Sequence record: MT446390.1
Strand: one strand, 5' to 3'
Source of the DNA: Escherichia phage TH12
DNA length: 64,000 nucleotides
The notes below the pieces were generated by a model. That model worked only from the letters and a program-made list of their open reading frames with translations, did no database searches and was not told where the DNA came from. Numbering within the stretch: position 1 is the stretch's first letter; each line of letters begins with the position of its first letter. Positions 2,383 through 62,306 of the stretch are shown piece after piece. The translations under genes were made by a program, and so were the position numbers.

Positions 2383-2670
2383 ATGATTCATCCATTTGAC
2401 GTATCAGAATCCAAAATTGCTAATCTTCGTGGTCATCATAAGTGTAAATCAGTTTATTGTGCTAAATTGGTAAAACATCCTGGTGATGCACACTACGGCT
2501 GGTTAGAATGCGACGAAGTTGTTATTGAAATCCCACCGGTAGATGCTAACTATCTTGAAGAAGGAGACCGCATTTATTTTGGCGAACTACACATCAGAGG
2601 TATCTATGGTAAAGACGAACTTGGGACTGTTGAGACTGAAGAATCTTCCGACATTTATCCTGTCGAATGA
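2383..2670 (+). CDS. hypothetical protein (rIIB-proximal small ORF)
   Basis: ATG at 2383 with AGGGG RBS-like purine run; 95 codons; position of T4 rIIB.1-type ORF. Confidence 0.45.
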   Translation: MIHPFDVSESKIANLRGHHKCKSVYCAKLVKHPGDAHYGWLECDEVVIEIPPVDANYLEEGDRIYFGELHIRGIYGKDELGTVETEESSDIYPVE

Positions 2671-2686
2671 GTTTTTGACTAGTGAA

Positions 2687-3163
2687 ATGAAAGTGAAGAT
2701 TGCTGACACTGCTCGGTATTCACTAAGCCAAAATCCAGACCAAAACAAAGAAGATGTAGTTCGACGTTGTAAGGTTGCAGTCTTTGCAGAGTATGTAGTA
2801 GCAAATTGGCTAGACGGATATGTTAATAAAGGTATTGAAGATGTAGAAGACCCGTACACGTATGCATGGGACGTGTTAGCCCATCCCAAATATTGTGGAA
2901 TTCGTGTAGAAGTCAAGACACATCAGATGGATTCTAAATGGATTTCTGTTACCACAGGATACAGTGGTGATTATCCGGGTGGCAACGGAATCAACATAGG
3001 GCCCTTCCTTAATCATCGAGTCGCTGACTGTATTATTATATTGAATGTCAAAGAAACCTCACCTGACGTCTTCTCTTATTCTATAAAGTTCGTTGGAGAC
3101 CATGAAGACCTAAAGAAAATCGTCCGCAAGAGCAACTACAACGGGTGGTATCTTCATCTTTAA
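2687..3163 (+). CDS. hypothetical protein at the position occupied by denB (endonuclease IV) in T4
   Basis: ATG at 2687 (MKVKIADTARY...) in frame with ORF-track 2543..3163; identity to DenB not verified. Confidence 0.5.
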   Translation: MKVKIADTARYSLSQNPDQNKEDVVRRCKVAVFAEYVVANWLDGYVNKGIEDVEDPYTYAWDVLAHPKYCGIRVEVKTHQMDSKWISVTTGYSGDYPGGNGINIGPFLNHRVADCIIILNVKETSPDVFSYSIKFVGDHEDLKKIVRKSNYNGWYLHL

Positions 3164-3175
3164 TTTCATAAAAGT

Positions 3176-3212
3176 GTTTACAACTAAGTAGGACTATGAT
3201 ATAGTAGTCCTA
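3176..3212 (+). promoter_or_regulatory. early-type promoter (GTTTAC -35, TATGATATAGT -10 region) embedded in inverted repeat TAGGACTA/TAGTCCTA
   Basis: GTTTAC at 3176-3181, AT-rich -10-like element in loop of 8-bp inverted repeat 3189-3212; ~20 nt upstream of RBS/ATG 3232. Confidence 0.4.
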
Positions 3213-3231
3213 TCTAAAAGAGGATAACATC

Positions 3232-3495
3232 ATGAAATTTAAATTTTTCTACGCAAAACATAAAGTGACTGGTGAGTTTGTTTCAATGTACAACACTGCA
3301 GATGACGAAGGGATGATTTATACTCATTTAGGTCTATCTCATTGGGACTCGGACGTGCCTTATATGTCATCTGAAGCCGAAATAACTCGTCTGGTTAACG
3401 GGCATATGAACGACCATTTTAATGTTATTCTTTCTAAAGACCTTAAAGAGGTTATCAACAAAGGATATATGGAACTCGCGGAAGTTGAGATATGA
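3232..3495 (+). CDS. hypothetical protein (87 aa)
   Basis: ORF with RBS AAGAGGA upstream, preceded by promoter cassette. Confidence 0.6.
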   Translation: MKFKFFYAKHKVTGEFVSMYNTADDEGMIYTHLGLSHWDSDVPYMSSEAEITRLVNGHMNDHFNVILSKDLKEVINKGYMELAEVEI

Positions 3496-3683
3496 GCTCT
3501 AAAATGTGGATAGGAATATGGTTGCTTAGTATCCCAATGATTTGTATAATATTTTCAATTGTGTTGAGGTACTTATGAAAAATGCACTTCTTATTGTACT
3601 AAAAACAATTTGTGATACTGGTTTTTACATTGCATGTTCGTTCACTGGAACATGGCTGGCTTTAACATATTTTAATGTAATTT

Positions 3684-3725
3684 AATTGTTTACATCACGG
3701 TAGGATTATGGTATAGTAGTCCTAC
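3684..3725 (+). promoter_or_regulatory. early-type promoter with imperfect inverted repeat GTAGGATTA/TAGTCCTAC
   Basis: GTTTAC followed ~17 nt later by TATGGTATAGT; near-copy of cassette at 3176-3212. Confidence 0.4.
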
Positions 3726-3745
3726 TGAAACATGAGGAACACAAA

Positions 3746-3946
3746 ATGGCTAAGCTTTTTAAAGATGTTGAAATTGGTGAAAAATTTGTTCTGAATAATG
3801 GACAGCAGCTTATTCGTGTAGCTTCTATAGCCGGACAAACTCATAACTGTATCGCCCCAACGTGTTGGACTCGATTCTTTATTGAAGATGACACTGAATG
3901 TTTAACTGTTGAAGAGCTTTTTGAACGTTCTGATATGACCGAATAA
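3746..3946 (+). CDS. hypothetical protein (66 aa)
   Basis: ORF with RBS GAGGAA upstream, preceded by promoter cassette. Confidence 0.6.
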   Translation: MAKLFKDVEIGEKFVLNNGQQLIRVASIAGQTHNCIAPTCWTRFFIEDDTECLTVEELFERSDMTE

Positions 3947-3948
3947 AA

Positions 3949-3984
3949 TTGTACAAACTCTTGAGAGCAGAGTATAATGCTCTC
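3949..3984 (+). promoter_or_regulatory. promoter with TATAAT inside inverted repeat GAGAGCA/TGCTCTC
   Basis: GTACAAAC -35-like, TATAAT at 3973-3978 in loop of 7-bp inverted repeat; upstream of ndd. Confidence 0.4.
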
Positions 3985-4022
3985 ATGGATTACAAAAACA
4001 TTAATCAATTGAGGAAATTAGC

Positions 4023-4469
4023 ATGTCCAAATATTTAACTCGTAAAGACCTTCTGGCAGTTGGCGGTGAAGTTGTTGCAGTAGTTCGTAATGGCGAATAC
4101 GGTTCTGAAGTTTCTAAAGAGTTTCGTTCTCGTGAAGGTTTTTACTTCTTTGTTAAAGGTTCATCTGACTGGCGACAAGTAGCAGCACGATTCTTTGTAG
4201 GACGTCAACGTTCTAAACAAGGGTTGGATGCAATTCTTTCTCACATTCGTCAAGGCCGTTCGCAACTAGCCCGTACCATGGGCACTAATAATATTGAATA
4301 TGACGTAATCTTTGTTTCAGCCAAGAACATGAAACCCCTGACTACTGGTTATGGTAAAGGTCAATTGGCTCTAGCATTCACTCGCAACCATACATCAGAA
4401 TATCAAACACTCACTGAAATGAACCGTCTTCTGGCCGATAATTTCAAATTTATTCTGCAGAGTTACTAA
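4023..4469 (+). CDS. ndd: nucleoid disruption protein Ndd
   Basis: 148 aa; motifs [58 protein letters not shown] match recalled T4 Ndd (151 aa). Confidence 0.85.
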
Positions 4470-4476
4470 TTTATAC

Positions 4477-4503
4477 AGGCCTATTAAGTTAGGCCTTTAA
4501 TTT
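4477..4503 (+). terminator. stem-loop terminator (AGGCCTA-TTAAGT-TAGGCCT) after ndd
   Basis: 7-bp inverted repeat followed by T-rich tract. Confidence 0.5.
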
Positions 4504-4521
4504 ATTTGTGAGGTAATTAAA

Positions 4522-4668
4522 ATGGTATCATGGATTATTGCATTGTTGTGTTGGTCGTTTTTATTCGTTAACACTTTAGTTACAGGCGAAACAACGGTAT
4601 TTCAACAGGCCGTATCACAAGGTACCTTAGCGGTCTTAGCTCTTCTTAACGTGTTAAAAGGCGAGTAA
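4522..4668 (+). CDS. small hydrophobic membrane peptide (48 aa); not in ORF track
   Basis: ATG with GAGG RBS; translation MVSWIIALLCWSFLFVNTLVTGETTVFQQ... is predicted single TM; region where T4 carries ac/stp-type small genes. Confidence 0.45.
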   Translation: MVSWIIALLCWSFLFVNTLVTGETTVFQQAVSQGTLAVLALLNVLKGE

Positions 4669-4808
4669 TGATTAAGAAAATCTTAGCAGGAGCCTTCGGG
4701 CTCTTGTTGTTGTTTACGATTCTGTACTACGGTGTGATGTTTGGACTAATCCAAGTAGTGCTTTTCATTTCAGATGTTATAATGGTTATTCGTTCATTAA
4801 TATGGTGA
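4668..4808 (+). CDS. small hydrophobic membrane peptide (46 aa); not in ORF track
   Basis: ATG overlaps previous stop (TAATG); translation MIKKILAGAFGLLLLFTILYYGVMFGLIQVVLF... hydrophobic. Confidence 0.4.
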   Translation: MIKKILAGAFGLLLLFTILYYGVMFGLIQVVLFISDVIMVIRSLIW

Positions 4809-4812
4809 AAAT

Positions 4813-6138
4813 ATGCAATTGAATTCTCGTAATCTAAAAAGTATTATTGATAACGAAGCCTTAGCATATGCTATGTACACCGTTGAAAACCGTGCAATCC
4901 CAAACATGATTGATGGATTTAAGCCGGTTCAACGTTTTGTGGTTCATCGTGCATTAGATTTGGCTCGTGGTAATAAAGAAAAATTTCATAAACTTGCGTC
5001 AATTGCAGGCGGTGTTGCAGATTTAGGTTATCACCATGGTGAATCTTCTGCACAAGATGCAGGTGCATTGATGGCTAACACATGGAATAACAACTATCCA
5101 CTATTAGATGGTCAAGGCAACTTTGGTTCTCGAACAGTCCAAAAAGCTGCAGCATCTCGTTATATTTTTGCTCGTGTAAGCAAAAATTTCTATAATGTCT
5201 ATAAAGATACCGAATATGCTCCAGCTCATGAAGATAAAGAACACGTTCCACCAAAATTCTATCTTCCTATTATTCCGACAGTTCTTTTGAACGGTGTCTC
5301 TGGTATTGCAACCGGTTACGCAACAAATATTCTGCCTCATAGTTTTAAATCGGTCAAAAAGGCTGTATTACAAGCTCTTCAAGGTAAAAATGTCACTAAA
5401 CCAAAAGTTGAATTCCCGGAATTCCGCGGTGAAGTGCATGAAGTTGATGGGCGTTATGAGATTCACGGAACATATAAGTTCACATCTCGCACTCAAATGC
5501 AGATAACTGAAATCCCATATAAATTCGACCGTGAAACGTATGTGAGTAAGGTTCTTGACCCGTTGGAAGACAAAGGTCTAATCTCATGGGAAGATGATTG
5601 TGGTGAACACGGTTTTGGGTTTAAGGTGAAGTTCCGTAAAGAGTACTCGCTTCCTGATGATGAAGAGCTACGTCATGAAAAAATCATGAAAGATTTTAGT
5701 CTCATCGAACGTCGTTCACAAAACATCACAGTGATTAATGAAAAGGGTAAATTAACGGTCTACGATAACGTAGTGGACTTAATCAAAGATTTTGTTGAAG
5801 TCCGTAAGACTTACGTTCAGAAACGTATTGATAACAAAATCATTGAATCTGAAAAAGCATTTAAACTGGCTTTTGCTAAGGCACACTTCATCAAAAAAGT
5901 TATCAGTGGCGAAATTGTGATTCAAGGCAAGACTCGTAAAGCTTTGACTGAAGAGCTAGCACAAATCGAAATGTATAAAGAACATATCGATAAATTGGTA
6001 GGTCTTAACATCTTCCATATCACTTCTGACGAAGCACGTAAACTAGCAGAAGAAGCTAAAGCTAAGAAAGAAGAAAATGAGTATTGGAAGTCTACTGATG
6101 TTGTGACAGAGTACACTAAAGACTTGGAGGCACTTTGA
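4813..6138 (+). CDS. 52: DNA topoisomerase II medium subunit (gp52)
   Basis: 441 aa; N-terminus MQLNSRNLKSIIDNEALAYAMYTVENRAIPNMIDGFKPVQRF is GyrA/ParC-like and matches recalled T4 gp52 (442 aa). Confidence 0.9.
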   Translation: MQLNSRNLKSIIDNEALAYAMYTVENRAIPNMIDGFKPVQRFVVHRALDLARGNKEKFHKLASIAGGVADLGYHHGESSAQDAGALMANTWNNNYPLLDGQGNFGSRTVQKAAASRYIFARVSKNFYNVYKDTEYAPAHEDKEHVPPKFYLPIIPTVLLNGVSGIATGYATNILPHSFKSVKKAVLQALQGKNVTKPKVEFPEFRGEVHEVDGRYEIHGTYKFTSRTQMQITEIPYKFDRETYVSKVLDPLEDKGLISWEDDCGEHGFGFKVKFRKEYSLPDDEELRHEKIMKDFSLIERRSQNITVINEKGKLTVYDNVVDLIKDFVEVRKTYVQKRIDNKIIESEKAFKLAFAKAHFIKKVISGEIVIQGKTRKALTEELAQIEMYKEHIDKLVGLNIFHITSDEARKLAEEAKAKKEENEYWKSTDVVTEYTKDLEAL

Positions 6139-6214
6139 GTGCCCTAGCCTTAGGATTTCTCGGTGCAATAGCTGCACTAGTGATTTGGCTGTATTGGTTG
6201 GACAAACATGATTA

Positions 6215-6234
6215 GGGAGCTTCGGCTCCCTTTT
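6215..6234 (+). terminator. rho-independent terminator (GGGAGC-TTCG-GCTCCC + T4)
   Basis: GC hairpin with TTCG loop and T tract downstream of gene 52. Confidence 0.6.
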
Positions 6235-6257
6235 GTGCATTTTTTTCTCACAAAACA

Positions 6258-6298
6258 GTTTACATGTGCTTCAAACATGATATTATAGACCTATCAAA
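6258..6298 (+). promoter_or_regulatory. early/middle promoter cassette (GTTTAC ... TGCTTCA MotA-box-like ... TATTATAGACCTATCAA)
   Basis: Near-identical copy at 6579-6619; contains TGCTTCA resembling MotA box plus -10-like TATTAT. Confidence 0.45.
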
Positions 6299-6325
6299 AC
6301 AAAACAACCAAATTGGAGAAATAAA

Positions 6326-6541
6326 ATGTCTAAAATGAAATTAACCCAAAACACAACTACTCGTTTCGGTAAAGTTAAACCTGGTATGAATGCTCTCCGT
6401 AAAGCACTTGTTGAAGAATTAAATTTCTTAGAAGTTGAAATCAATTCTTTAGTGGTTCGCGGTTCAAATGGACATCATTTAGAAAAGCTTCGTTCTAAAA
6501 AGGCAAAACTTATTAGCCTTATTAAAGAAATGAGTTTGTAA
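6326..6541 (+). CDS. hypothetical protein (71 aa)
   Basis: ORF with RBS GGAGAA; leader and first codons (MSK) duplicated from the motA leader. Confidence 0.55.
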   Translation: MSKMKLTQNTTTRFGKVKPGMNALRKALVEELNFLEVEINSLVVRGSNGHHLEKLRSKKAKLISLIKEMSL

Positions 6542-6578
6542 ATTTTACCAGGGCTTTTGAAAAAGAGCCCAAAATAAA

Positions 6579-6619
6579 GTTTACTTTTGCTTCAAACATG
6601 ATATTATAGACCTATCAAA
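6579..6619 (+). promoter_or_regulatory. early/middle promoter cassette for motA (duplicate of 6258-6298)
   Basis: Shares the 31-bp string GCTTCAAACATGATATTATAGACCTATCAAA with the upstream copy. Confidence 0.45.
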
Positions 6620-6643
6620 CAAATACTAATTTGGAGAAATAAA

Positions 6644-7276
6644 ATGTCTAAAGTTACTTACATCATCAAAGCTTCTGAAAACGCTCTGAATGAAAAAACT
6701 GCTGCAATAATGGTTTATATCATTAAGAACAACTTCACCACTGCTGCCAATGTCCGTGAAGCTCTGAAAGCGGAATACAACGCATCAGTTGTTAACTCTA
6801 ACATTGGTGTATTGATTAAGAAAGGTTTAGTCGAAAAATCCGGTGATGGACTTGTAGCAACAGGCGAAGCAATGGATATTATCCAAAAAGCTGCAGACCT
6901 CTTTGCCCAAGAAAATGCTCCAGAACTTCTTCAGAAACGTAACACTAGAAAAGCACGTGGAGTTACTCCTGAAATGCATGAATTAGCAAACTTTGTTTTT
7001 GAAAATATTAAAGATAAAGTTGAAGTTAAAGAAATTGGTGAAAACCGTAGTAACTTAGAAGTTCGATTCGCTAAACGAGTTCTAGGTATTCGTCAGATCG
7101 AAATTCGTCGAGATGGCGCTCTTAGAATCTTTGCATACAACATGTCAGAAACTGAATCAAAGCTGTTTACTTCTCTTGAAAATGATGTTAAGATTAAGAT
7201 CGGTGGTAAATATACCTACATTGACTTCCCTAATGTGTCCAAAGAAATCATTACCCTTGTAACTAACGTACTGTGA
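6644..7276 (+). CDS. motA: middle-transcription activator MotA
   Basis: 210 aa; MSKVTYIIKAS..., NSNIGVLIKKGLVEKSGDGL matches recalled T4 MotA (211 aa). Confidence 0.9.
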   Translation: MSKVTYIIKASENALNEKTAAIMVYIIKNNFTTAANVREALKAEYNASVVNSNIGVLIKKGLVEKSGDGLVATGEAMDIIQKAADLFAQENAPELLQKRNTRKARGVTPEMHELANFVFENIKDKVEVKEIGENRSNLEVRFAKRVLGIRQIEIRRDGALRIFAYNMSETESKLFTSLENDVKIKIGGKYTYIDFPNVSKEIITLVTNVL

Positions 7277-9410: not shown

Positions 9411-10082
9411 TTATTTAGCCCGCCCTAATATCCTTGCTGCTTGGTTGCATATTGCAGCCAAGCGTTCTTCATTTAGCACATCCGATCCCTTATACCAATA
9501 CATAGAAACAGTTCCCGCATATATGTTATCCAAATTGAAGTAAGGACAACTATACATATACGCCAGTTCCGGAGTTTTTGATTTGGTAGGTAAGAAAGCA
9601 AAATCTGTTTTAGAAGTAAAGTGAAGTCCACTTAAATGGACCGAATATTCTGCTGTCGTTTTATCAACAGGAAATCCTCCCATAGATTTTTCAGTTACTG
9701 TGCTAGGTAACTTACCTTCATACGCAATAAGGTCGACGAAATAATTTAGATTTTTAGGTCTGAAAGAATACACCGAACTAAAATCCGCCCTTGATGTGAC
9801 GTGGACTATTTGTAGTTGTTCTAAAGCCGCAGATTCAAATCGTGTATTTCTTTCTTTTTGAATTACTTCTGTGTAAGTATCATATTTCGACCTCACGTAA
9901 TAATCCATAAAAATATTCCCTTTGTACCATATTAGTGCCATTAGGAACAAAAGAACTACAACAGCAACTCTTGAAATAAGAATATTTCCAGAGGCGTTAT
10001 CTTTGAAAATGCGGTCTAGCAACCCAAATAAAATATCACTAGGCGAAAATGATACTTTTGGTGCTGCCATATTACCTCCCAT
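9411..10082 (-). CDS. t: holin T
   Basis: 223 aa; single N-terminal TM plus large periplasmic domain; matches recalled T4 T holin. Confidence 0.9.
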   Translation of the reverse strand: MGGNMAAPKVSFSPSDILFGLLDRIFKDNASGNILISRVAVVVLLFLMALIWYKGNIFMDYYVRSKYDTYTEVIQKERNTRFESAALEQLQIVHVTSRADFSSVYSFRPKNLNYFVDLIAYEGKLPSTVTEKSMGGFPVDKTTAEYSVHLSGLHFTSKTDFAFLPTKSKTPELAYMYSCPYFNLDNIYAGTVSMYWYKGSDVLNEERLAAICNQAARILGRAK

Positions 10083-21171: not shown

Positions 21172-21487
21172 TATTAAACCGGTTGATGAGGCCGGTTTAT
21201 CTGAACAAGAATTAGCAGTAAAACACGATAAAGATGATATCGCTAAATTGCTTGACCGCCAAGAAAACGGATTCATTATTGAATCCATGGTTGAACAATT
21301 TGGTATGTCTTATTTAGAAGCAACAACTGCTTTCTTGGAAGAAAATTCTATTCCAGAAACACAATTTGCTAAATTTATTCCTACAGGAATTGTTGAAAAA
21401 ATTACAAGCGAAGCAATTGACGAAAACATGCTTCGCCCATCAGTTGCTCGTGGTGAAAAAACTAATACGTTAGATTTCTTATTATGA
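21149..21487 (+). CDS. 33: late transcription accessory protein gp33
   Basis: 112 aa (T4 gp33 112 aa); MTQFSL... start and C-terminal DFLL recalled from T4. Confidence 0.75.
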   Translation: MTQFSLSDIKPVDEAGLSEQELAVKHDKDDIAKLLDRQENGFIIESMVEQFGMSYLEATTAFLEENSIPETQFAKFIPTGIVEKITSEAIDENMLRPSVARGEKTNTLDFLL

Positions 21488-22167
21488 AATACGTTGTGTA
21501 TAAAACTACCAATAAAATAAATGGTAAAATTTATATAGGCGTACACAAAAAACATAAAGAGAAAGATTGGTATATTGGATCAGGCCGCGCTATATTAGCG
21601 GCCAAAGCTAAATATGGACTAAAAAATTTTTATACCGAAATTCTTTATGAATATGATAATGACAAGGACGCCTATAAAAAAGAAGCAGAATTGGTTAACG
21701 AAGATTTTGTTTTGCGAGATGATACTTATAACTTAGTTCCCGGTGGTAAAGGTGGTCCTGGTAAAAAACAAAGTGATGAAGCTAAAAGGTCTATTTCACT
21801 TTCTAAATTAGGTAAACCTAGATCTGAAGAGACTAAGGCTAAAGTATCTAAAACAAGACTAGAAAGAAAAATACCGTCACCTAATAAGGGTAAGAAACTA
21901 TCTGAAGCTCACAAATTGGCCTTGAGTAAAGTCCGAAAAGGGCGAAAAACGAATAAGCCGATGCCTGATTCAACCAAAGAAGCTCTTAGAATAGCAAATT
22001 CAAAGCCGCATTCTAAAGAAAGAACTATTAAAAAACAAAAACCTATAATTATTGATGGTATAAAATACGCCTCGTGTAAAGAAGTTTCAAATGTTTTTAA
22101 TATTTCTGCGTCTTTAGTTACATATAGACTTAAATCTTCAAAATGGTCCGGATGGAAATATGATTAA
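21484..22167 (+). CDS. free-standing GIY-YIG homing endonuclease (Seg-like)
   Basis: 227 aa; N-terminal VVYKTTNKINGKIYIGVH...YIGSG GIY-YIG module, central repeated basic motifs (NUMOD-like) and C-terminal I-TevI-like DNA-binding segment; overlaps gene 33 stop and gene 59 start. Confidence 0.8.
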   Translation: MKYVVYKTTNKINGKIYIGVHKKHKEKDWYIGSGRAILAAKAKYGLKNFYTEILYEYDNDKDAYKKEAELVNEDFVLRDDTYNLVPGGKGGPGKKQSDEAKRSISLSKLGKPRSEETKAKVSKTRLERKIPSPNKGKKLSEAHKLALSKVRKGRKTNKPMPDSTKEALRIANSKPHSKERTIKKQKPIIIDGIKYASCKEVSNVFNISASLVTYRLKSSKWSGWKYD

Positions 22168-23838: not shown

Positions 23839-23860
23839 GGGAGACTTCGGTCTCCCTTTT
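23839..23860 (+). terminator. rho-independent terminator (GGGAGAC-TTCG-GTCTCCC + T4)
   Basis: 7-bp GC stem, TTCG loop, T tract after gene 32. Confidence 0.65.
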
Positions 23861-23945
23861 GAGTATCTGTAAATTACTGAAAAAGTTGTTTACTTCTTCC
23901 ATGGATGTGTTAGTATAGACCTATCAACAACATGAGGAAATCAAA

Positions 23946-24338
23946 ATGGAAATCGGAAAATCTTATATCATTAACCCTTTATTTAAAGACGACTTTGTTC
24001 AAGAAGCACCACATAATAACGCTAAGATGTTAAAATTGATTGAACTCCATGGGCCTAGTTTTGTTGTAAACGGAATGGAACCTGATTATGATAGCGATAC
24101 GCCAAACGTAGTAAGTGTAACTATGGAAGATGGTACTGTATGTTCTGCCGGTGGTGAAATTGGAACTTATTTTGAGATTTATCCTGACGAGTTCAAATAC
24201 TTTACTGAGGTAGATTTAGTAAAGCCTCAAACTACTAACGAAGGTATAACTTTAGGTGTAACAAAAATCCATTGTATCGTAGATGAAACCAACGTCGACG
24301 AAATCATCGAACTTTTGCAAAAAACTTTTAAAAAGTAG
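23946..24338 (+). CDS. hypothetical protein (130 aa), frd-proximal ORF
   Basis: ORF with RBS GAGGAAA and upstream promoter cassette. Confidence 0.6.
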   Translation: MEIGKSYIINPLFKDDFVQEAPHNNAKMLKLIELHGPSFVVNGMEPDYDSDTPNVVSVTMEDGTVCSAGGEIGTYFEIYPDEFKYFTEVDLVKPQTTNEGITLGVTKIHCIVDETNVDEIIELLQKTFKK

Positions 24339-24376
24339 TGTACAATCAGATAGGGTTATGTTATAGTAGCCCTATC
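24336..24376 (+). promoter_or_regulatory. promoter cassette with -10-like TTATGTTATAGTAG inside inverted repeat GATAGGG/CCCTATC
   Basis: GTGTACAA -35-like followed by a 7-bp inverted repeat flanking an AT-rich -10 region; upstream of ORF 24401. Confidence 0.4.
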
Positions 24377-24400
24377 AAATCAAAAGTGAAGGAGAATAAA

Positions 24401-24649
24401 ATGAGATTGCAACGTCAGAGCATCAAAGATTCTGAAGTTAGAGGTAAATGGTACTTCAACATCGTCGGTAAAGACGCTGAACTCCTTGAACAAGCTGAAG
24501 AAGCTTTACGTGAAATGGGTTGGAACGAAGAATGTGATGGATGTCCACTCTATGAAGATGGTGAAAGTGCAGGATTCTGGATTTGCCACTCTGACGTTGA
24601 AATGTTCAAAGCTGATTGGAAGGTTGTTAAGAAAAATCTGAGGAAATAA
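24401..24649 (+). CDS. hypothetical protein (82 aa)
   Basis: Internal ATG of ORF-track 24338..24649 preceded by RBS AAGGAGA. Confidence 0.55.
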   Translation: MRLQRQSIKDSEVRGKWYFNIVGKDAELLEQAEEALREMGWNEECDGCPLYEDGESAGFWICHSDVEMFKADWKVVKKNLRK

Positions 24650-24651
24650 AA

Positions 24652-25239
24652 ATGCTTAAATTAGTATTCGCATGCGCACCATCTAAAACAGTTGATGATA
24701 AACTGGAATATGCTTTTGGATTAGGTGATGGGCTGCCATGGAAGCATATCAAACAAGATATGAGTAACTTTGCTGCTCGCACTAAAAACACTGTAATGGT
24801 TATGGGTGCTAAGACTTTTGCATCATTACCTCGTCTACTCCCAGATCGTACTCATGTGGTTGTCACTGATATGGCCAGAAAACTGCCTAGGACTAAAAGC
24901 GACGAACTTGCACGGTTCTATATCACCCAAGCAGAATTTATTACCCTGGTGACTGGTAGTGAAATTAACTTGTTCGGCCCTTCAACAGACGTACCGTTTA
25001 AACTTTCTACTGAACATGTTGATGTATCTGTTATCGGCGGTCCTGCTCTATTAAAACAAGCACTGCCTTATGCCGATGAAATTGTGATGACTAAAATCAT
25101 TAAGAAATGTCGTGTTAATTCAGACGTTCAACTTGATAAAGATTTCATCCAAGATATTATGCTTCAACGTTCTATGGTAGAATCTCATTACTACAGAATC
25201 GATGAACTCACCGAAATTACTGAGAGCGTATATAAATGA
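24652..25239 (+). CDS. frd: dihydrofolate reductase
   Basis: 195 aa; FGLGDGLPW, VMGAKTF, VIGGPALL motifs; T4 Frd-like; stop overlaps td start. Confidence 0.85.
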   Translation: MLKLVFACAPSKTVDDKLEYAFGLGDGLPWKHIKQDMSNFAARTKNTVMVMGAKTFASLPRLLPDRTHVVVTDMARKLPRTKSDELARFYITQAEFITLVTGSEINLFGPSTDVPFKLSTEHVDVSVIGGPALLKQALPYADEIVMTKIIKKCRVNSDVQLDKDFIQDIMLQRSMVESHYYRIDELTEITESVYK

Positions 25240-25784
25240 AACAATACCAATACCTGATTAATGATATCCTAGAAAATGGCTACGAAACAGACGACCGTAC
25301 AGGCACAGGAACAATTGCCCTGTTCGGAACTAAATTACGTTGGGACCTGACTAAAGGATTCCCTGCAGTAACAACTAAGAAATTAGCATGGAAAGCTTGT
25401 ATTGCCGAGTTACTGTGGTTCATGTCCGGTTCTACTAATGTTAATGAATTACGTCTTCGTACTCATGGTAGTCTAATTGAAGGTAAAACTATTTGGGACG
25501 ATAATTACGAAAATCAGGCAAAAGACCTTGGTTATCATAGTGGTGAACTTGGTCCTATATATGGTAAACAATGGCGTGATTTCGGTGGTGTGGACCAATT
25601 AGTTGAAACAATCGACCGTATTAAAAAATTACCAACTGATCGTCGTCAAATTGTTTCTGCCTGGAACCCTGCCGAAATTGACCAAATGGCTCTTCCTCCT
25701 TGCCATATGTTCTATCAGTTCAATGTGCGTAATGGTCATCTTGATTTACAATGGTATCAACGCAGTGTAGATGTTTTCTTAGGT
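25236..25784 (+). CDS. td: thymidylate synthase, exon 1
   Basis: ThyA N-terminal motifs; ORF ends in ...SVDVFLG immediately followed by TAA that begins the intron. Confidence 0.9.
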
Positions 25785-26800
25785 TAATTTAGGCCTAGGT
25801 ATAAGGTGACTTATACTTGTAATCTATCTAAACGGGGGACCTCTCTAGTAGACAATCCCGTGCTAAATTGTAGGACTACCCTTTAATAAATACTTCTATA
25901 TAAAAAGAGGTGTTTATGAAAAGCGGAATTTATCAGATTAAAAACACTTTAAACGGTAAAGTGTATGTTGGAAGTTCTAAAGATTTTGAGAAAAGATGGA
26001 AGAGACATTTTAAAGACCTTGAAAACGGTGTTCACTCTTCTATAAAATTTCAAAGGTCTTTTAATAAACATGGTAATGTTTTTGAATGCTCTGTACTGGA
26101 AGAAATTCCATATGAGAAAGATTTGATTATTGAACGAGAAAATTTTTGGATTAAAGAGCTAAATTCTAAAATTAATGGATATAATATTGCTGATGCGTCT
26201 TTTGGCGATGTGCTTTCAAATCATCCATTAAAAGAAGAAATTGCTAAGAAACGAGCTGAAACTGTTAAAGCTAAGATGCTTAAGCTTGGTCCTGATGGTC
26301 GGAAAGCTCTTTATGGTAAACACGGAAGTAAAAATGGCCGATGGAATCCAGAAAACCACAAGTTTTGTAAATGCGGTGTTCGCATACCATCTTCGGCTGA
26401 TACTTGTGGAAAGTGCCGAAAACGTTCAGGTGAAAATAACCCGTTCTTTAATCACAAACATTCAGAAAAAACTAAAACTAAACTATCCGAAAAGATGAAA
26501 GGCAAAAAGCCAGCTAACATCAAAAAGATTTCATGCGATGGGATTATTTTTGAATGTGCAGCCGATGCGGCTAGACATTTTGAAATTTCATCAGGATTAG
26601 TTACTTACCGTGTAAAATCTGATAAGTGGAATTGGTTCTACATAAATGCCTAACGACTATCCCTTTAGGGAGTAGGGTCAAGTGACTCGAAACGATAGAC
26701 AACTTGCTTTAACAAGTTGGAGATATAGTCTGCTCTGCATGGTGACATGCAGCTGGATATAATTCCGGGATAAGATTAACGACCTTATCTGAACATAATG
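25785..26800 (+). mobile_element. td group I self-splicing intron (1016 nt) carrying I-TevI
   Basis: Begins TAATTTAGGCCTAGGTATAAGGTG and ends ...GGATAAGATTAACGACCTTATCTGAACATAATG, very close to recalled T4 td intron ends; splits the conserved ThyA peptide DVFLG|LPFNIASYA. Confidence 0.9.
25916..26653 (+). CDS. intron-encoded GIY-YIG homing endonuclease I-TevI
   Basis: 245 aa from ATG 25916; MKSGIYQIKNTLNGKVYVGS... and C-terminal ISCDGIIFECAADAARHFEISSGLVTYRVKSDKWNWFYINA match recalled I-TevI. Confidence 0.9.
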   Translation: MKSGIYQIKNTLNGKVYVGSSKDFEKRWKRHFKDLENGVHSSIKFQRSFNKHGNVFECSVLEEIPYEKDLIIERENFWIKELNSKINGYNIADASFGDVLSNHPLKEEIAKKRAETVKAKMLKLGPDGRKALYGKHGSKNGRWNPENHKFCKCGVRIPSSADTCGKCRKRSGENNPFFNHKHSEKTKTKLSEKMKGKKPANIKKISCDGIIFECAADAARHFEISSGLVTYRVKSDKWNWFYINA

Positions 26801-27112
26801 CTACCGTTCAACATTGCCTCGTACGCTGCCTTGACGCATATTGTAGCGAAGATGTGTAACCTTATCCCGGGTGATTTAGTGTTCTCAGGCGGCAACACGC
26901 ATATCTACAGCAATCATGTAGAACAATGCAAAGAAGTTCTTCGTCGTGAGCCTAAAGAACTGTGTGAACTTAAAATTGATTGGCCTGAAGGATTCTCTGA
27001 TTGGAGCACGACATTACAGCTTCATTGGGTAACAGAGCATATGAATCCGAGTGATTTCATTCTTAAAAATTACGAATCACATCCAGTTATCAAAGCTAAA
27101 ATGGCGGTATAA
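26801..27112 (+). CDS. td: thymidylate synthase, exon 2
   Basis: Begins LPFNIASYA (ThyA active-site region continuation); exons sum to 286 aa as in T4. Confidence 0.9.
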   Translation, partial: LPFNIASYAALTHIVAKMCNLIPGDLVFSGGNTHIYSNHVEQCKEVLRREPKELCELKIDWPEGFSDWSTTLQLHWVTEHMNPSDFILKNYESHPVIKAKMAV

Positions 27113-30966: not shown

Positions 30967-31377
30967 ATGAAAGATATTGCCGCCGAATATTCCTTTATTA
31001 AATATACAGAATTGGAGCTATTAGAAGATGCAACAATTAAAACAGTTGATGTCCCTAATAAGAAAAATGTCATATACGCTATTGCTATAGATGACGAACT
31101 TGTGTATATTGGTAAAACCAAGAATTTAAAGAAACGCATTAACTATTATCGAACAGCCATAAATCGAAAAGACCAGACTTCAGATTCAAGAAAATCACTT
31201 ATGATTTTGGATGCCTTAATGCAAGGCAAAAAGGTTGAATTCTGGGCCCGCCAATGTTTTGACCTTTCAGTCACCAACGAACTTGGTTCAATGACCATCG
31301 CAACAATGGACCTTGAAGAACCGCTTTTTATCAAAAAGTTCAACCCGCCTTGGAATATCCAACATAAGAAAAAGTAG
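30967..31377 (+). CDS. denA: endonuclease II (GIY-YIG family)
   Basis: 136 aa (same as T4 DenA); VIYAIAIDDELVYIGKT GIY-YIG-like motif; position between nrdB and rnlA. Confidence 0.8.
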   Translation: MKDIAAEYSFIKYTELELLEDATIKTVDVPNKKNVIYAIAIDDELVYIGKTKNLKKRINYYRTAINRKDQTSDSRKSLMILDALMQGKKVEFWARQCFDLSVTNELGSMTIATMDLEEPLFIKKFNPPWNIQHKKK

Positions 31378-31425
31378 TTTACACACCACAAGGATTGTGG
31401 TACAATTTAAAAAAAAACTAACTGA

Positions 31426-32559
<1,134 letters not shown>

Positions 32560-32621
32560 TGGTTTACAAACACCAAGGATGGTGTTACTATGGGTTTTAT
32601 CAACAACACGAGGAGAAAATT

Positions 32622-33122
32622 ATGAATATGCAATTGATTACTAACGATATGGTTGTGGCAGCATTTGGTGATTCTACAGATGGAATCCGGGTCTTTAAGA
32701 AAGGCCGTCCAGTTGGTTATCTTACGGACCTTCGTACTACTCTAGCGAAAAATGCTAAAAAGAAGTTAAAGCAAAAGGAATATTCCACCCGATACGCTGA
32801 AGAGAAACGTGAAGCAATGCCGGAAGCAGTTAATGCTATGGTAGAATTTCTTCAAAACAATTTGACTAAATATGACGCTAATGTGTTCATTAATATTAGT
32901 CAACCAAACGTACATATCGCAGGTATAAAATTCTACATTATTTGCGACCCTCTTACCGACAAATTCAACCGTCTCGGAATCTCAAGTCCATATCATACAG
33001 CAGAAGAGTTGTGTGTATTGTTTGAATCGTACAAAATCCAGTGTGATGGTTTGAAAACCGTTCTTATCAATGGATTATCCCGAGATGAAATCATTGAGAT
33101 TATTAAAACATGCTTAAAGTAA
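32622..33122 (+). CDS. alc: Alc (unfolding/termination on cytosine DNA)
   Basis: ATG at 32622 with RBS GAGGAG; 166 aa (T4 Alc 167 aa); position after rnlA. Confidence 0.7.
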   Translation: MNMQLITNDMVVAAFGDSTDGIRVFKKGRPVGYLTDLRTTLAKNAKKKLKQKEYSTRYAEEKREAMPEAVNAMVEFLQNNLTKYDANVFINISQPNVHIAGIKFYIICDPLTDKFNRLGISSPYHTAEELCVLFESYKIQCDGLKTVLINGLSRDEIIEIIKTCLK

Positions 33123-33753: not shown

Positions 33754-33968
33754 CTAAAGAACAGCATGAATACATTAAAGGGCTTATCTATGAATCTGAA
33801 ATGGCGGCTATGATTTATGGGCGCCAGATTCAACGATTAGAATCTTTGCCTCCGACTAATGACCGATTGTTAGTTCAGTCTCGTGCTAATCTGAAAAATG
33901 AATATCAGAATAAGTGGGCAGTAGCGACTAAAGCTCTTCATGAGTATATCGAATCTTTAGTAAAATAG
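33744..33968 (+). CDS. hypothetical protein (74 aa)
   Basis: ORF overlapping previous stop. Confidence 0.5.
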   Translation: MPMTKEQHEYIKGLIYESEMAAMIYGRQIQRLESLPPTNDRLLVQSRANLKNEYQNKWAVATKALHEYIESLVK

Positions 33969-34003
33969 TTTACAAACTCTCGGGAGCAGAGTATAATGCT
34001 CCT
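33969..34003 (+). promoter_or_regulatory. early promoter with TATAAT inside inverted repeat GGAGCA/TGCTCC
   Basis: GTTTAC at 33969-33974, TATAAT at 33992-33997 flanked by 6-bp inverted repeat. Confidence 0.45.
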
Positions 34004-34025
34004 ATGGATAATTGAGGAAATCTAA

Positions 34026-34324
34026 ATGAAAACATTACTAGAGAATTACATCAAACGGTCTGATGAGTATATTGATATCTGTCGTGGAATGTCACTTGGC
34101 AATTATGACAAAGATGCAGCAAAGGCACTAGATGAAGCAGGTAAAGCTCTTCGTAAAGCTGCTAAAGAAAAAGGGTTGGATTTGCAACAACTCAAAAGTC
34201 ATATGATTAAATTTATTTCTTCAAACGTTAGAAGTACGTCAATTAATAAAAACGTTGCTGAAATTAATAAAGACCGGCGCGAGCATAACATTCGTATTCT
34301 TGAAATTTTCTTAGGAATAAAATA

Positions 34325-36091: not shown

Positions 36092-36151
36092 TGGTTTACA
36101 ACATGGTGGAGTTGTGATACTATAACTCTACCAACAAATGAGGAAATAGAA

Positions 36152-36388
36152 ATGCTAAGTGAAAACCCAATCACAGTACACGAATTTCAGATTAAAGTAA
36201 AAGAATTTGCTCAAGCACTCATCAATAAAGTGTCTGAACGTTTCCAAGATGCAACATTACGAGTTATTCAAGAATCTCCACGTTCTTTTCTCATAATCGT
36301 TAATCCTAAAGATGGTGACCAAATTACTAATCTTAAATTAGGCAGTGACGGTCTTGTTGAAGCAACTCGAGTGTATGGAACACTATAA
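36152..36388 (+). CDS. hypothetical protein (78 aa)
   Basis: ORF with RBS GAGGAAA and promoter cassette upstream. Confidence 0.55.
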   Translation: MLSENPITVHEFQIKVKEFAQALINKVSERFQDATLRVIQESPRSFLIIVNPKDGDQITNLKLGSDGLVEATRVYGTL

Positions 36389-36508
36389 TGAGAGTTATCT
36401 CATTACTATCGAGAATGGTCATAAATCTGAGCACTACCAACTTAGCCTGTCTAATCCGGTTAAAGGTATTGTTGAATCAGAATCTGTTTATATCTCCTAA
36501 GGATTGTT

Positions 36509-37501
36509 ATGTTACCTGTCGTCGGAAAACTTATTTCTCCAAAAGAACTGGCTGAGATTATTCCTTTGTCGGAAGCTTACGCATCACAAGTGGCTTCTCA
36601 TCGCGAACAAGTTAATTCGATTATGAACGGTGAAGACCCACGCAAACTTATTGTTGTAGGTCCTTGTTCAATTCATGACCCTATTGCTGCTGTTGAATAC
36701 GGCAAACGTCTGGCTGAACTTCAAACTCGTCTTCCTAATGTTCTGTTAGTGATGCGCGTTTATTTTGAAAAGCCTCGAACTACCGTAGGTTGGAAAGGTC
36801 TTGTAAATGATCCATATCTTGACGGAAGTTTTGATATGAACCACGGTCTTATAGTTGCACGAACATTGTGTCGTAAACTTCTACGTATGGGACTTCCATT
36901 AGCAACTGAAGTATTAGACCCATTCACGATTAAGTATCTTTCTGGTATTTTCTCATGGGTTGCTATTGGCGCACGTACGACTGAAAGTCAGACACATCGT
37001 GAAATTGCTTCAGGTCTACCGATGTGCGTAGGCTTCAAGAACGCAACCAATGGTTCTATTAAAGTAGCTACAGACGCGATGTATAGTGCCGCCTGGCCTC
37101 ATCGGTATATGGGTATGGACGTCGATGGTACTGTAGGCATTGTTGAAGCTGAAGGTAATCAGAATACGCATATCGTATTGCGTGGCGGGACCAACGGCCC
37201 GAACTATCATTCTTCTGATATTCAAGAAGCTTCTAACAAAGCAAGGGCAGTAGGTCTGAATCATTATGTAATGGTTGACTGTAGCCATGCAAACGCTGAT
37301 GGGCATTATAGCAATCAAATTGATATTGGTAAAAATTTAGCAGCTAATGATTTGGTCAAAGGAATTATGATAGAATCGTTCCTACATGAAGGAAATCAAA
37401 AAATTTCTGATAATATGTCCTATGGCGTTTCCGTTACCGATGCGTGCATCAGTTGGGAACAAACTAAAGAGCTGTTAACTTATATTAATAAGGTTCAATA
37501 A
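36509..37501 (+). CDS. 3-deoxy-D-arabino-heptulosonate 7-phosphate (DAHP) synthase, class I (AroG/AroF/AroH-like)
   Basis: 330 aa; LIVVGPCSIHDP, MRVYFEKPRTTVGWKGL, IGARTTESQTHRE, GFKNATNGS, ILRGG and MIESFLHEGNQ segments align with recalled E. coli AroG. Confidence 0.85.
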   Translation: MLPVVGKLISPKELAEIIPLSEAYASQVASHREQVNSIMNGEDPRKLIVVGPCSIHDPIAAVEYGKRLAELQTRLPNVLLVMRVYFEKPRTTVGWKGLVNDPYLDGSFDMNHGLIVARTLCRKLLRMGLPLATEVLDPFTIKYLSGIFSWVAIGARTTESQTHREIASGLPMCVGFKNATNGSIKVATDAMYSAAWPHRYMGMDVDGTVGIVEAEGNQNTHIVLRGGTNGPNYHSSDIQEASNKARAVGLNHYVMVDCSHANADGHYSNQIDIGKNLAANDLVKGIMIESFLHEGNQKISDNMSYGVSVTDACISWEQTKELLTYINKVQ

Positions 37502-39490: not shown

Positions 39491-39514
39491 AGGGAGACTT
39501 CGGTCTCCCTTTTG
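39491..39514 (+). terminator. rho-independent terminator (AGGGAGAC-TTCG-GTCTCCCT + T tract)
   Basis: 8-bp stem, TTCG loop, TTTGTG. Confidence 0.65.
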
Positions 39515-39616
39515 TGCGTTTAGGGCAGAAAAAGTTTAAAAAAGATGTTTACTCTCCTGTAGGATGTGTTACTATAGACTTGTACCACCTAATCAATAAA
39601 ACAACCGGAGAATAAA

Positions 39617-39985
39617 ATGAAAATCAATCTGAACTCATACATCAAATGTAAAGACCACGATGGTTATAAAGCTATCGAAATTAAAGAATTCCAGTGGATG
39701 TTATACAAAGAGCAATTTGAGTTCGTAGGTTGTATGACCCCTGAAGGTCCTTCTGATGATTTCTCTTGGAAAATTGTGTTAGCAAACTTTTTCACAGGTG
39801 ACACGTACGAATTAAAAACTATTATTACCGGTAAAATTCGTTCAGAAACATATGTTGACGAAGAAACTGGTTACTCTGAAGATGTTACATGGTATCAAAA
39901 TGGACGCATTACAGCAGATAACCTGATCGAAAAAATGAAAGCCAAAGGTGTTTTAAATTTAGACAATTGGATTAAAGTTGCATAA
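39617..39985 (+). CDS. hypothetical protein (122 aa)
   Basis: ORF with RBS GGAGAA and upstream promoter cassette. Confidence 0.6.
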   Translation: MKINLNSYIKCKDHDGYKAIEIKEFQWMLYKEQFEFVGCMTPEGPSDDFSWKIVLANFFTGDTYELKTIITGKIRSETYVDEETGYSEDVTWYQNGRITADNLIEKMKAKGVLNLDNWIKVA

Positions 39986-39989
39986 AACA

Positions 39990-40029
39990 GTTTACTTTGG
40001 TACAGGTTATGTTATTATAGACCTGTACC
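39990..40029 (+). promoter_or_regulatory. early promoter with -10 region inside 9-bp inverted repeat GGTACAGGT/ACCTGTACC
   Basis: GTTTAC at 39990-39995; loop TATGTTATTATAG; upstream of ORF 40060. Confidence 0.45.
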
Positions 40030-40059
40030 AATAAACAACTTAAACATCTGGAGAATAAA

Positions 40060-40425
40060 ATGAACTACATCAACTTCGAACGCAAATATGTTTCTAACGG
40101 TATTGCTGGTTCTTCTGAAGTTATTTGCTTATGGAAACACGAAAACGGTACAGTTTGTGAAATCGAACAGTGCATGACTCCTAATTACGTTTATATGCGA
40201 TTTGAAAATGGTATCACGGTTTCAATCACGATGGAAGGTTCAAATTTTAAAATTGCATTAGATGATGATTTCCGTCAGCGTGATTTAGGTACTCATCCTT
40301 GCTGGAATGGTGTTAATCGTAAACTTCTGGTTAAAACTTGGATTCGTCATATCCTGAGTAACCGAGCTAAACCTGAACATCTCGAAGCAATCTTTGATGT
40401 AGTTCTTAACGAATTTGATATCTAA
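40060..40425 (+). CDS. hypothetical protein (121 aa)
   Basis: ORF with RBS GGAGAA. Confidence 0.6.
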   Translation: MNYINFERKYVSNGIAGSSEVICLWKHENGTVCEIEQCMTPNYVYMRFENGITVSITMEGSNFKIALDDDFRQRDLGTHPCWNGVNRKLLVKTWIRHILSNRAKPEHLEAIFDVVLNEFDI

Positions 40426-41076: not shown

Positions 41077-41130
41077 TTTACATCCAAGGACGGATTAGAG
41101 TATAATGATTTCTTTAGTAAGTGGAAAAAT

Positions 41131-41328
41131 ATGAAATTTTTAATAGCACAAACAGTCCAATTAAAAGGTGTTGGAATTCCTGGGGTGATTTTTAAAGTTC
41201 TCCCTGAATTTAAAACCGCCGCTGGAATTATCAATGAAGCGTATGCTGTTCAATGGGTTGATTGGACTTCTGACATACGTATGGGTAAAGAGTTATCTCC
41301 TATTAAAGGGTTGAAACATGTTGAATAA
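41131..41328 (+). CDS. hypothetical protein (65 aa)
   Basis: Small ORF, coupled to next. Confidence 0.45.
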   Translation: MKFLIAQTVQLKGVGIPGVIFKVLPEFKTAAGIINEAYAVQWVDWTSDIRMGKELSPIKGLKHVE

Positions 41329-62240: not shown

Positions 62241-62306
62241 AAGATTGTTTACAACGTATTTGGTATGTGATACTATAGACTTATCAACTACAGAGGAGTA
62301 AACAAA

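Follow-up and report, generated by a model that had tools for sequence, protein, structure and literature searches.

Early-promoter cassettes of a T-even phage carry covarying hairpins around the -10 element that probably mark cistron boundaries

The stretch of DNA analysed here, called the window throughout, comprises 64,000 nucleotides (nt) of Escherichia phage TH12 (sequence record MT446390.1), and its subject is a recurring intergenic early-promoter cassette in which the -10 element lies between the two arms of an inverted repeat. From 2500 to 6500 the window is 99.9% identical to Escherichia phage CCU7, 99.2% identical to Shigella phage Shf125875 and 97–98% identical to many further RB69-like phages of the genus Mosigvirus; judged by this identity, it is a segment of a Mosigvirus (RB69-like) genome of the T-even type. 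An apparent 154-bp indel relative to Shf125875 in a first similarity search was an artefact of joined pieces, and the local BLAST alignment is colinear. The early-gene strand, taken from the Shf125875 annotation, is the window's + strand, along which the genes run rIIA–rIIB–denB–ORF270c-like–ndd.1–ndd–ac–52.1–gene 52–motA and on to alt and beyond. At the first cassettes, denB occupies 2543–3163, the ORF270c-like gene 3232–3495, ndd.1 3746–3946 and ndd 4023–4469. An earlier note on this DNA had flagged the cassette at 3176, which lies in this denB–ndd region.

Seven cassettes of this design, each named here by its first position, lie on the + strand in clusters at 3.1–4.0, 24.3 and 33.9–40.1 kb, beside open reading frames (ORFs) without Pfam hits. 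Each begins at an upstream stop codon 0–13 nt before the -35, in UP-like sequence rich in A+T (67–92% over the 24 nt upstream, compared with 62% for the whole window), and continues with a GTTTAC, GTGTAC or TTGTAC -35, a 16–17-bp spacer (counted from TTTACN), a TGn extended -10 with a TAnnnT hexamer, and a GAGGA or GGAG Shine–Dalgarno (SD) sequence followed by ATG. The 5′ arm of the repeat uses the free part of the spacer (about -24 to -15) and the 3′ arm runs from about -8 to about +4, leaving the -10 in a loop of 6–13 nt; stems are mixed in sequence and the tails behind them are A-rich. The hairpin thus placed lies 11–26 nt past the upstream stop codon and 6–27 nt ahead of the next SD. This succession of A/T-rich sequence, -35, extended -10, stem-loop, SD and ATG, recurring between genes, bears out the likeness that the earlier note saw to the promoter-early stem-loop (PeSL) modules of T4-type phages.

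Three cassettes serve the denB–ndd region. The first (3176–3234), upstream of the ORF270c-like gene, has its -35 GTTTAC at 3176–3181, TGn and -10 TATAGT at 3197–3205, and arms TAGGACTA (3189–3196) and TAGTCCTA (3205–3212), which extend to 3188–3197/3204–3213 in the RNA fold (-13.2 kcal/mol, z -4.3); the predicted start is at about 3212, the SD at 3218–3224 and the ATG at 3232. The second (3688–3748), upstream of ndd.1, has a -35 at 3688–3693, -10 TATAGT at 3712–3717, arms at 3698–3709/3716–3727 around a core of GTAGGATTA (3700–3708) and TAGTCCTAC (3717–3725) with one T.G (-16.1 kcal/mol, z -4.4), a predicted start at about 3724 and ATG at 3746. The third (3949–4025), upstream of ndd, combines a -35 TTGTAC (3949–3954) and -10 TATAAT (3973–3978) with arms GAGAGCA (3963–3969) and TGCTCTC (3978–3984), folding at -13.9 kcal/mol (z -4.3), with a predicted start at about 3985, SD at 4011–4017 and ATG at 4023.

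The remaining four are more scattered. At 24338–24403 the -35 GTGTAC (24338–24343) overlaps the upstream stop codon and the -10 TATAGT (24362–24367) is enclosed by arms 24349–24359/24366–24376, including GATAGGG (24349–24355) and CCCTATC (24370–24376); the hairpin folds at -16.3 kcal/mol (z -6.3), the predicted start is at about 24374 and the ATG at 24401. The cassette at 33968–34028, upstream of a pseT.1-region gene, has a -35 at 33968–33973, -10 TATAAT at 33992–33997, arms 33982–33988/33997–34003 with a core of GGAGCA (33983–33988) and TGCTCC (33997–34002), a predicted start at about 34004 and ATG at 34026; it is paralogous to the 3949 cassette and shows, relative to it, a compensatory change of A-T to G-C, and its hairpin (-12.2 kcal/mol) has the weakest z of the seven, -2.8. 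Upstream of cd.3, the cassette at 36094–36154 (-35 36094–36099, -10 TACTAT 36118–36123, ATG 36152) carries arms GGTGGAGTT and AACTCTACC at 36104–36115/36122–36133 with one G.T (-16.9 kcal/mol, z -5.7) and a predicted start at about 36130, and is the orthologue of the T4 promoter Pe133295. The last, 39990–40062, upstream of gene 30.7 (-35 39990–39995, -10 TATTAT 40013–40018, ATG 40060), contains GGTACAGGT (39999–40007) and ACCTGTACC (40021–40029) within perfect 11-bp arms 39997–40007/40021–40031 (-18.0 kcal/mol, z -4.7), with a predicted start at about 40025; its T4 orthologue retains GGTACAGG/CCTGTACC. Predicted folding energies thus span -12 to -18 kcal/mol, with z-scores, computed against dinucleotide shuffles, of -4.3 to -6.3 in all cassettes except that at 33968.

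The earlier note had listed six of these repeats, and every arm pair is present where it was claimed, the fifth ending one base off, at 34002. It spoke of at least six cassettes and overlooked the seventh, at 36104–36133 upstream of cd.3. Its description of the parts holds less uniformly: GTTTAC is the -35 in four of its six cassettes but not at 24338 (GTGTAC) or 3949 (TTGTAC); some stems exceed its range of 6–9 bp, namely the 11 perfect bp at 39997–40007/40021–40031 and, where it gave a 7-bp arm, the 10 bp with one T.G at 24349–24358/24367–24376; and SD and ATG do follow, but 20–39 nt beyond the 3′ arm rather than about 20.

To ask how often early promoters carry such repeats, promoters were found with a weight matrix that covers just the -35 and TGn/-10 blocks, so that the arm-forming flanks do not contribute, at a threshold of at least 16 bits. 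This gave 16 hits on the + strand of the window and none on the - strand and, over the whole genome of Shf125875, 49 hits on the early strand and none on the other, a split that marks the promoter set as clean. For each promoter we then measured the longest perfect stem whose loop encloses the -10 core. Stems of at least 7 bp surround the -10 at 17 of the 49 Shf125875 promoters, and stems of at least 6 bp at 22. Shuffling the arm regions leaves 0.96 promoters expected with a stem of at least 7 bp (maximum 4 in 200 trials), and 1.9% of random genome positions have one; the enrichment over shuffled sequence, on which the earlier note had staked its reading, is therefore present. A count at the RNA level finds a -10-enclosing hairpin at 26 of 49, so that about a third to a half of early promoters sit inside one. 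T4 shows the same, with -10-enclosing stems at 11 of 45 early promoters compared with about 1 expected, among them 14-bp stems at 57990 and 65799 (the latter upstream of ipII) and 10-bp stems at 73939 (upstream of ipI), 20612 and 6630. The inverted repeats are confirmed as real and strongly non-random.

Could the dyad have no function of its own, arising as a by-product of a partly palindromic consensus or of a copied ancestral cassette? The consensus is indeed self-complementary about the -10, with an expected pairing of 4.4 of about 12 positions compared with about 3.1 elsewhere, and several cassettes are evident paralogues, such as the TAGGACTA...TAGTCCTA set. A column-by-column count of complementarity about a fixed centre gives only a small excess over the 49 promoters (4.86, compared with 4.43 from column composition); the stems shift slightly in register and the consensus is itself partly palindromic, and the best-stem and arm-swap tests were used in its place. 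Chimeras whose left and right halves come from different promoters keep the consensus yet lose the stems: 3.6% reach 7 bp, compared with 35% of real promoters. At least ten unrelated arm sequences occur among the promoters, and compensatory double substitutions fall inside promoters that are otherwise conserved. The arm-swap test together with this covariation leads us to reject chance or consensus as the source, and we regard a functionless dyad as very improbable.

Two further lines of evidence concern the pairing itself. First, the arms covary. A search for related loci with the Ndd protein returned only three, nearly identical and useless for this purpose, so IMG/VR was scanned with DNA patterns of two promoter families in which N stood for the arm positions. 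Family A1, ACAAACTCT-N9-AGTATAAT, yielded 18 distinct T-even sequences, including the 3949 and 33968 cassettes and T4 7215; 99.2% of their cells are paired, compared with 85.8 ± 1.9 in shuffles (0/500 match) and 40–49% in slid controls, and both sides change in five of seven pairs (at one position, G-C, C-G, U-A, G.U and U.G all occur). Family A2, GTTTAC-N15-TGNTATAGTAG, chosen by its 3′ arm only, yielded 25 distinct sequences, including the 3176 and 3688 cassettes, with 92% of cells paired, compensatory changes in five of ten pairs and 19 double-changed cells compared with 6.3 ± 2.4 in shuffles (0/500). The T4 orthologues of the 36094 and 39990 cassettes hold the helix through different wobble positions, which also speaks against a by-product. 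By these comparisons, the pairing is under selection and not inherited from the promoter consensus.

Second, the pairing is asymmetric between strands. One-sided changes in family A2 are G.U or U.G, and no A.C mismatch occurs within the helix cores of the two families; when the stems of Shf125875 and T4 are extended across single mismatches, 8 are G.T and 0 are A.C. Across all 88 promoters, none of them chosen for its fold, sense RNA exceeds antisense RNA in stability by 1.8 kcal/mol (Wilcoxon p ~1e-4), compared with a difference of -0.3 at random positions. Such a helix appears to be read single-stranded on the sense strand, as RNA or, less plausibly, as displaced non-template DNA, and selection on the sense strand argues for an element that acts as RNA. 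A scan of the whole window against Rfam at gathering score gave zero matches.

These same observations bear on a device acting at the level of DNA, whether an operator for a dimeric protein (for instance in early-promoter shut-off) or a cruciform or single-stranded hairpin that affects promoter opening or attracts endonuclease VII. Most of the dyads are centred on one point, between bases 1 and 2 of the -10 hexamer, as an operator would have it; shut-off of T4 early promoters is described as not fully understood (PMC3014915), Arbiol et al. raised the speculative idea of a DNA-binding protein that recognises the stem-loop (PMC2839356), and a hairpin in non-template single-stranded DNA is indistinguishable from RNA by sequence alone. 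The arms, however, are unrelated between families (TAGGACTA, GAGAGCA, GGTACAGGT, GGTGGAGTT, GATAGGG, GGTCTAT) and covary through G.U intermediates, which fits pairing and not base-specific protein contacts, and half of the early promoters have no such dyad. A cruciform would carry A.C mismatches on its other strand wherever the sense strand has G.T, and the sense strand has G.T but never A.C. Loops of 8–13 nt with arms of 7–11 bp are, moreover, poor cruciform formers. Neither the protein-binding site nor the cruciform that the earlier note had entertained survives this comparison, the former for want of a conserved half-site and the latter because imperfect positions are G.T on the sense strand only, and we consider a DNA-level device improbable.

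Which RNA would carry the hairpin depends on where transcription starts. In the GenBank record of T4, the promoter lying between cd.2 and cd.3 is called Pe133295; our scan places its -35 at 133331 and its hexamer at 133307, so that the coordinate in the name equals the hexamer start + 12. A published logo of RB69 promoters agrees in register, its hexamer running from -12 to -7 (PMC1524935). Applied to the window, this T4 rule gives the seven starts listed above, each within or just past the 3′ arm. A transcript from the cassette's own promoter would then lack the 5′ arm, and only RNA reading through from upstream would fold; both the start-site position and the folding in vivo are what we infer. 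The suggestion in the earlier note of a hairpin at the 5′ end of the promoter's own transcript is at odds with this geometry, the 5′ arm being untranscribed from that promoter. Nolan et al. list 57 early promoters of RB69 (PMC1524935); searching their text for the words stem, hairpin and palindrome returned nothing.

The hairpins are not intrinsic (Rho-independent) terminators, an identity ruled out by the missing T-run: none of the seven is followed by one, none was flagged as terminator-like on the + strand by a terminator scan, and the tails behind the 3′ arms are TCTAAAAG, CTGAAACA, AAATCAAA and similar. The same scan does detect true terminators nearby, at 2348–2363, 4477–4496, 9438–9464 and elsewhere. 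Canonical terminators of this genome (2348–2363, 6215–6230, 23839–23856 and 39492–39509) likewise lie between genes, at the end of an early cistron and just before the next early promoter, and differ in having G/C-rich stems, a UUCG tetraloop and a T-run in place of a mixed stem, a -10 in the loop and an A-rich tail.

The two kinds of hairpin are distributed in a complementary manner according to the spacing between stop codon and promoter. Among Shf125875 and T4 promoters taken together, those whose -35 is at most 15 nt from the stop codon have a -10 hairpin in 34 of 50 cases and a strong upstream hairpin in 3 of 50; where the gap is at least 30 nt, a -10 hairpin occurs in 10 of 29 and a strong upstream hairpin in 15 of 29 (Fisher p = 0.005, with ORFs called crudely), these upstream hairpins being typically T-run terminators with a UUCG tetraloop. 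All seven hairpin cassettes of the window belong to the tightly spaced kind.

Other early promoters of the window, all on the + strand, illustrate the alternative. The cassette at 6258–6334 has no -10 hairpin and is preceded by a canonical terminator at 6215–6230 with a T-run; that at 6579–6653, the motA promoter, also lacks a -10 hairpin and has a hairpin at 6551–6570 ahead of it, with no T-run. Those at 23888–23948 and 39547–39619, again without a -10 hairpin, follow UUCG terminators at 23839–23856 and 39492–39509, respectively, which share one sequence; these two and the terminator at 6215–6230 each have a UUCG tetraloop and a T-run. The shared 18-nt hairpin, GGGAGACTTCGGTCTCCC followed by TTTT, is thus present in two identical copies, and because each stands just upstream of an early promoter without a -10 hairpin, the terminators too look like repeated modules. 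The promoter at 62247–62309 follows a gene on the opposite strand and has no hairpin, as expected if the hairpin acts on RNA from an upstream gene on the same strand.

Two cassettes carry a hairpin of another kind, lying wholly in the spacer and not around the -10: 31377–31437 on the + strand, with a small hairpin CCACAaggatTGTGG at 31386–31400, and 32562–32624 on the same strand, with ACACCaaggatGGTGT at 32570–32585. They fit the PeSL subclass that has its stem-loop between -35 and -10, and the same spacer-hairpin motif stands upstream of other genes in T4 and Tequatrovirus ELT1. Promoters of other classes, counted in Shf125875 and T4, differ from one another: stems of at least 7 bp occur at none of 22 MotA-type middle promoters and at 7 of 48 late-promoter TATAAATA sites, against a background of about 2%.

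We propose that the -10 hairpin is probably a cistron-boundary RNA element overlaid on a sigma-70 early promoter of the T-even PeSL type, a reading to which the stop-codon spacing and the division of labour with terminators point. Transcription from the cassette promoter would start in or just after the 3′ arm and leave the leader of its own mRNA open, while RNA from an upstream promoter would read through the gene boundary, include both arms and fold, at the energies given above, into a hairpin marking the end of the upstream cistron in the polycistronic early RNA. The hairpin could act as a barrier to 3′ exonucleases that protects the upstream cistron, as a pause or attenuation site that limits read-through, or as both; such a boundary function is the most likely one. 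Where intergenic space suffices, canonical terminators would fill the same role; where room is short, the hairpin would be laid over the promoter in the only two stretches left free, the spacer and the +1 region, and this restriction of the arms would account for the -10 in the loop and for the fixed register. The sole experiment in the literature cited agrees, the stem-loop of an RB49 PeSL having lowered expression of a downstream lacZ to about the same extent as did the rrnB T1 terminator (PMC2839356).

Several points weigh against this proposal. Efficient intrinsic termination at the -10 hairpins is unlikely, given the missing T-run and the canonical UUCG terminators that the phage uses elsewhere. 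The stop-codon-spacing test inherits the crudeness of its ORF calls, and a test of whether -10 hairpins and T-run-bearing hairpins further upstream exclude each other was not significant. A search of the literature for maps of T4 3′ ends or start sites found none usable. As for the strand asymmetry, a non-template single-stranded DNA hairpin would leave the same sequence signature as RNA, and the sense strand has a GC skew of +0.09, so that strand-biased C-to-T mutation pressure could add to the excess of G.T; a mild strand bias of this kind cannot, however, produce the double substitutions.

Instead of marking the end of the upstream cistron, the hairpin in read-through RNA might act on the gene downstream, damping or coupling its translation, while in RNA from the cassette's own promoter the leader would stay free. 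Synthesis of the gene product would then be confined largely to the time of early-promoter activity, or to cases in which the upstream gene is translated and the ribosome terminating on it melts the 5′ arm. In five of the seven cassettes the hairpin lies 6–11 nt upstream of the SD, and the 5′ arm begins 11–26 nt past the upstream stop codon, close to where the front of a ribosome terminating there would be. There is also a second class of longer hairpins, in which spacer sequence immediately behind the -35 (ttCTCCTC...) is itself the pairing partner of the downstream gene's SD: in Shf125875 at 61550 (14 bp), 7431 (13 bp), 64760 and 44055, and in T4 at 62797 (regB), 8218, 136336, 123093 and 166807, with energies of -18 to -24 kcal/mol. 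In these genes the SD would be sequestered only in read-through RNA. The class is modestly enriched over arm swaps at stems of at least 8 bp (3 compared with 0.54 in Shf125875 and 2 compared with 0.13 in T4), but it is a minority and absent or weak in the window, where the 3′ arm of all seven hairpins ends before the SD and both SD and AUG are single-stranded in the predicted folds.

A precedent reportedly exists in the T4 genes e, soc, 49 and I-TevI, whose late or middle promoters are said to lie inside a hairpin that sequesters the ribosome-binding site, and the 7 of 48 late TATAAATA sites with stems are consistent with it. The logic is shared, in that a promoter between or within the arms makes the structure depend on the promoter of origin; in those genes, however, the 3′ arm is said to cover the SD or AUG, whereas the window hairpins belong to early promoters and stop short of the SD. 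Translational control of the downstream gene by these hairpins seems to us rather unlikely. A tentative generalization, also rather unlikely, is that roughly half of the early promoters of T-even phages lie inside covarying RNA hairpins and together form a genome-wide switch governed by promoter of origin. If so, each such cistron would exist in two RNA forms, one with an open leader from its own promoter and one with a structured boundary from read-through, the latter sequestering the SD in some genes. After shut-off of their own promoters, when only read-through RNA is left, early genes would have their stability and translation governed by this switch.

Separately from any role of the hairpin in RNA, the 50–85 bp of near-identical sequence from promoter to ATG could provide, at the DNA level, dispersed homology for the gain, loss and re-promotion of genes. 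Of about seven differences between the window and RB69 in local BLAST alignments, two have their junctions inside promoter/5′ untranslated region (5′UTR) cassettes; the others involve homing endonucleases or lie outside promoters. At the first, window 6251–6334 and 6570–6653 both align to a single RB69 copy: the ORF at 6326–6541 (71 amino acids (aa), no Pfam hit), which starts with the first three codons of motA (ATG TCT AAA), is bracketed by two promoter-to-ATG cassette copies of about 75 bp (6258 and 6579), and RB69 lacks it. On this alignment, 6251–6653 bears the clear mark of a gene gained or lost when promoter cassettes recombined. At the second, RB69 has an extra ORF245c whose junction falls in the 5′UTR of the 23888 cassette, at 23923–23948. 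In addition, comparison of ELT1 (1540–1600) with window 3176–3231 shows the promoter core of ORF270c replaced between a conserved denB end and a conserved ATG, and it seems that promoter cores are swapped without the genes that follow them. The denB–ndd plastic region is the site of a published gene exchange between PeSLs of PST and T4 (PMC4122927).

A promoter cassette as a recombination joint is thus plausible, in keeping with half of what the earlier note had proposed. Its other half, that the exchange takes place at the repeats, fares differently: since the cassettes at both RB69 indels have no -10 hairpin, they do not show the inverted repeat to be the site of recombination. It also tells against a special role for the cassettes that T4 recombines at homologies of 2–10 bp without promoter cassettes (PMC9391042).

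The remaining differences from close relatives are of other kinds. Window 25783–26801 is absent from RB69 and Shf125875 and contains an ORF (25910–26653) with I-TevI-type GIY-YIG, zinc-finger and DNA-binding domains, between ORFs 25236–25787 and 26798–27112, where RB69 and Shf125875 have an uninterrupted td. By its content and position it looks like a td group I intron with a homing endonuclease; the Rfam scan at gathering score gave no intron match. A SegH-like GIY-YIG homing endonuclease gene at 21484–22167, between genes 33 and 59, is present in Shf125875 and not in RB69, and an insertion relative to RB69 at 36403–37498 brings a DAHP synthase (AroG-like) gene (36509–37501), an auxiliary metabolic gene also found in Shf125875. 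RB69 and Shf125875 have gene 30.6 where the window, at 40468–41315, has a 204-aa ORF, an early promoter (41076) and a 65-aa ORF, neither ORF with a Pfam match.

The element as such is already described as a PeSL; it is real, but no new kind of system. The fullest description concerns phages RB49 and phi1 (Arbiol, Comeau, Kutateladze, Adamia, Krisch 2010; PMC2839356), whose PeSLs are the same composite intergenic unit as the window cassettes. Five positions of the stem-loop are described there, the commonest between -35 and -10 or overlapping the -10 (PMC2839356). In both, the unit is repeated many times, mostly in plastic early regions beside small ORFs of unknown function; gene gain or loss between two cassettes distinguishes close relatives in RB49 and phi1 and, at 6251–6653, apparently in the window as well. 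The sequences differ, RB49 and phi1 having a near-perfect TTGACA-N17-TATAAT with stems of G-runs and C-runs, and the window a T-even GTTTAC -35 with varied stems richer in A/T. So does the evidence: promoter activity, terminator activity and mini-circles were demonstrated experimentally for RB49 and phi1 (PMC2839356), whereas the window cassettes are described from their sequence.

Closer relatives are the T-even PeSLs described for PST and T4 (PMC4122927; Comeau, Arbiol, Krisch 2014), with the stem consensus AGNA-loop-TCNT. The promoter type TTTACW-N17-TAYWAT is shared, and the stem consensus fits tAGGActa...tagTCCTa in the window (PMC4122927). According to the figure legend of the 2014 paper, the PST stems lie just upstream of the promoter (PMC4122927), whereas those of the window and of our T4 scan enclose the -10. 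Elements with A/T-rich stems at the internal-protein (IP) loci of T-even phages had been noted by the same authors (PMC2839356, which cites Repoila et al. 1994), and the T4 promoters upstream of ipI and ipII carry the 10-bp and 14-bp stems found by our scan. The PST and T4 papers analyse no Mosigvirus and do not report covariation, strand asymmetry or start-site geometry.

Compared with these systems, the present analysis extends the PeSL architecture to the RB69 genus Mosigvirus and, by our own scan (11/45), finds it in T4 as well. Relative to the papers compared, three points appear to be new: compensatory changes on the sense strand preserve the stem; the stem cannot, given the predicted start, exist in the promoter's own transcript; and it is found mainly in places where the upstream stop codon lies too close for a separate terminator to fit. 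These points turn a motif that had been descriptive in the known PeSLs into a testable RNA element, and they offer annotators of T-even genomes an easy way to mark early transcription units and the joints at which recombination is likely.

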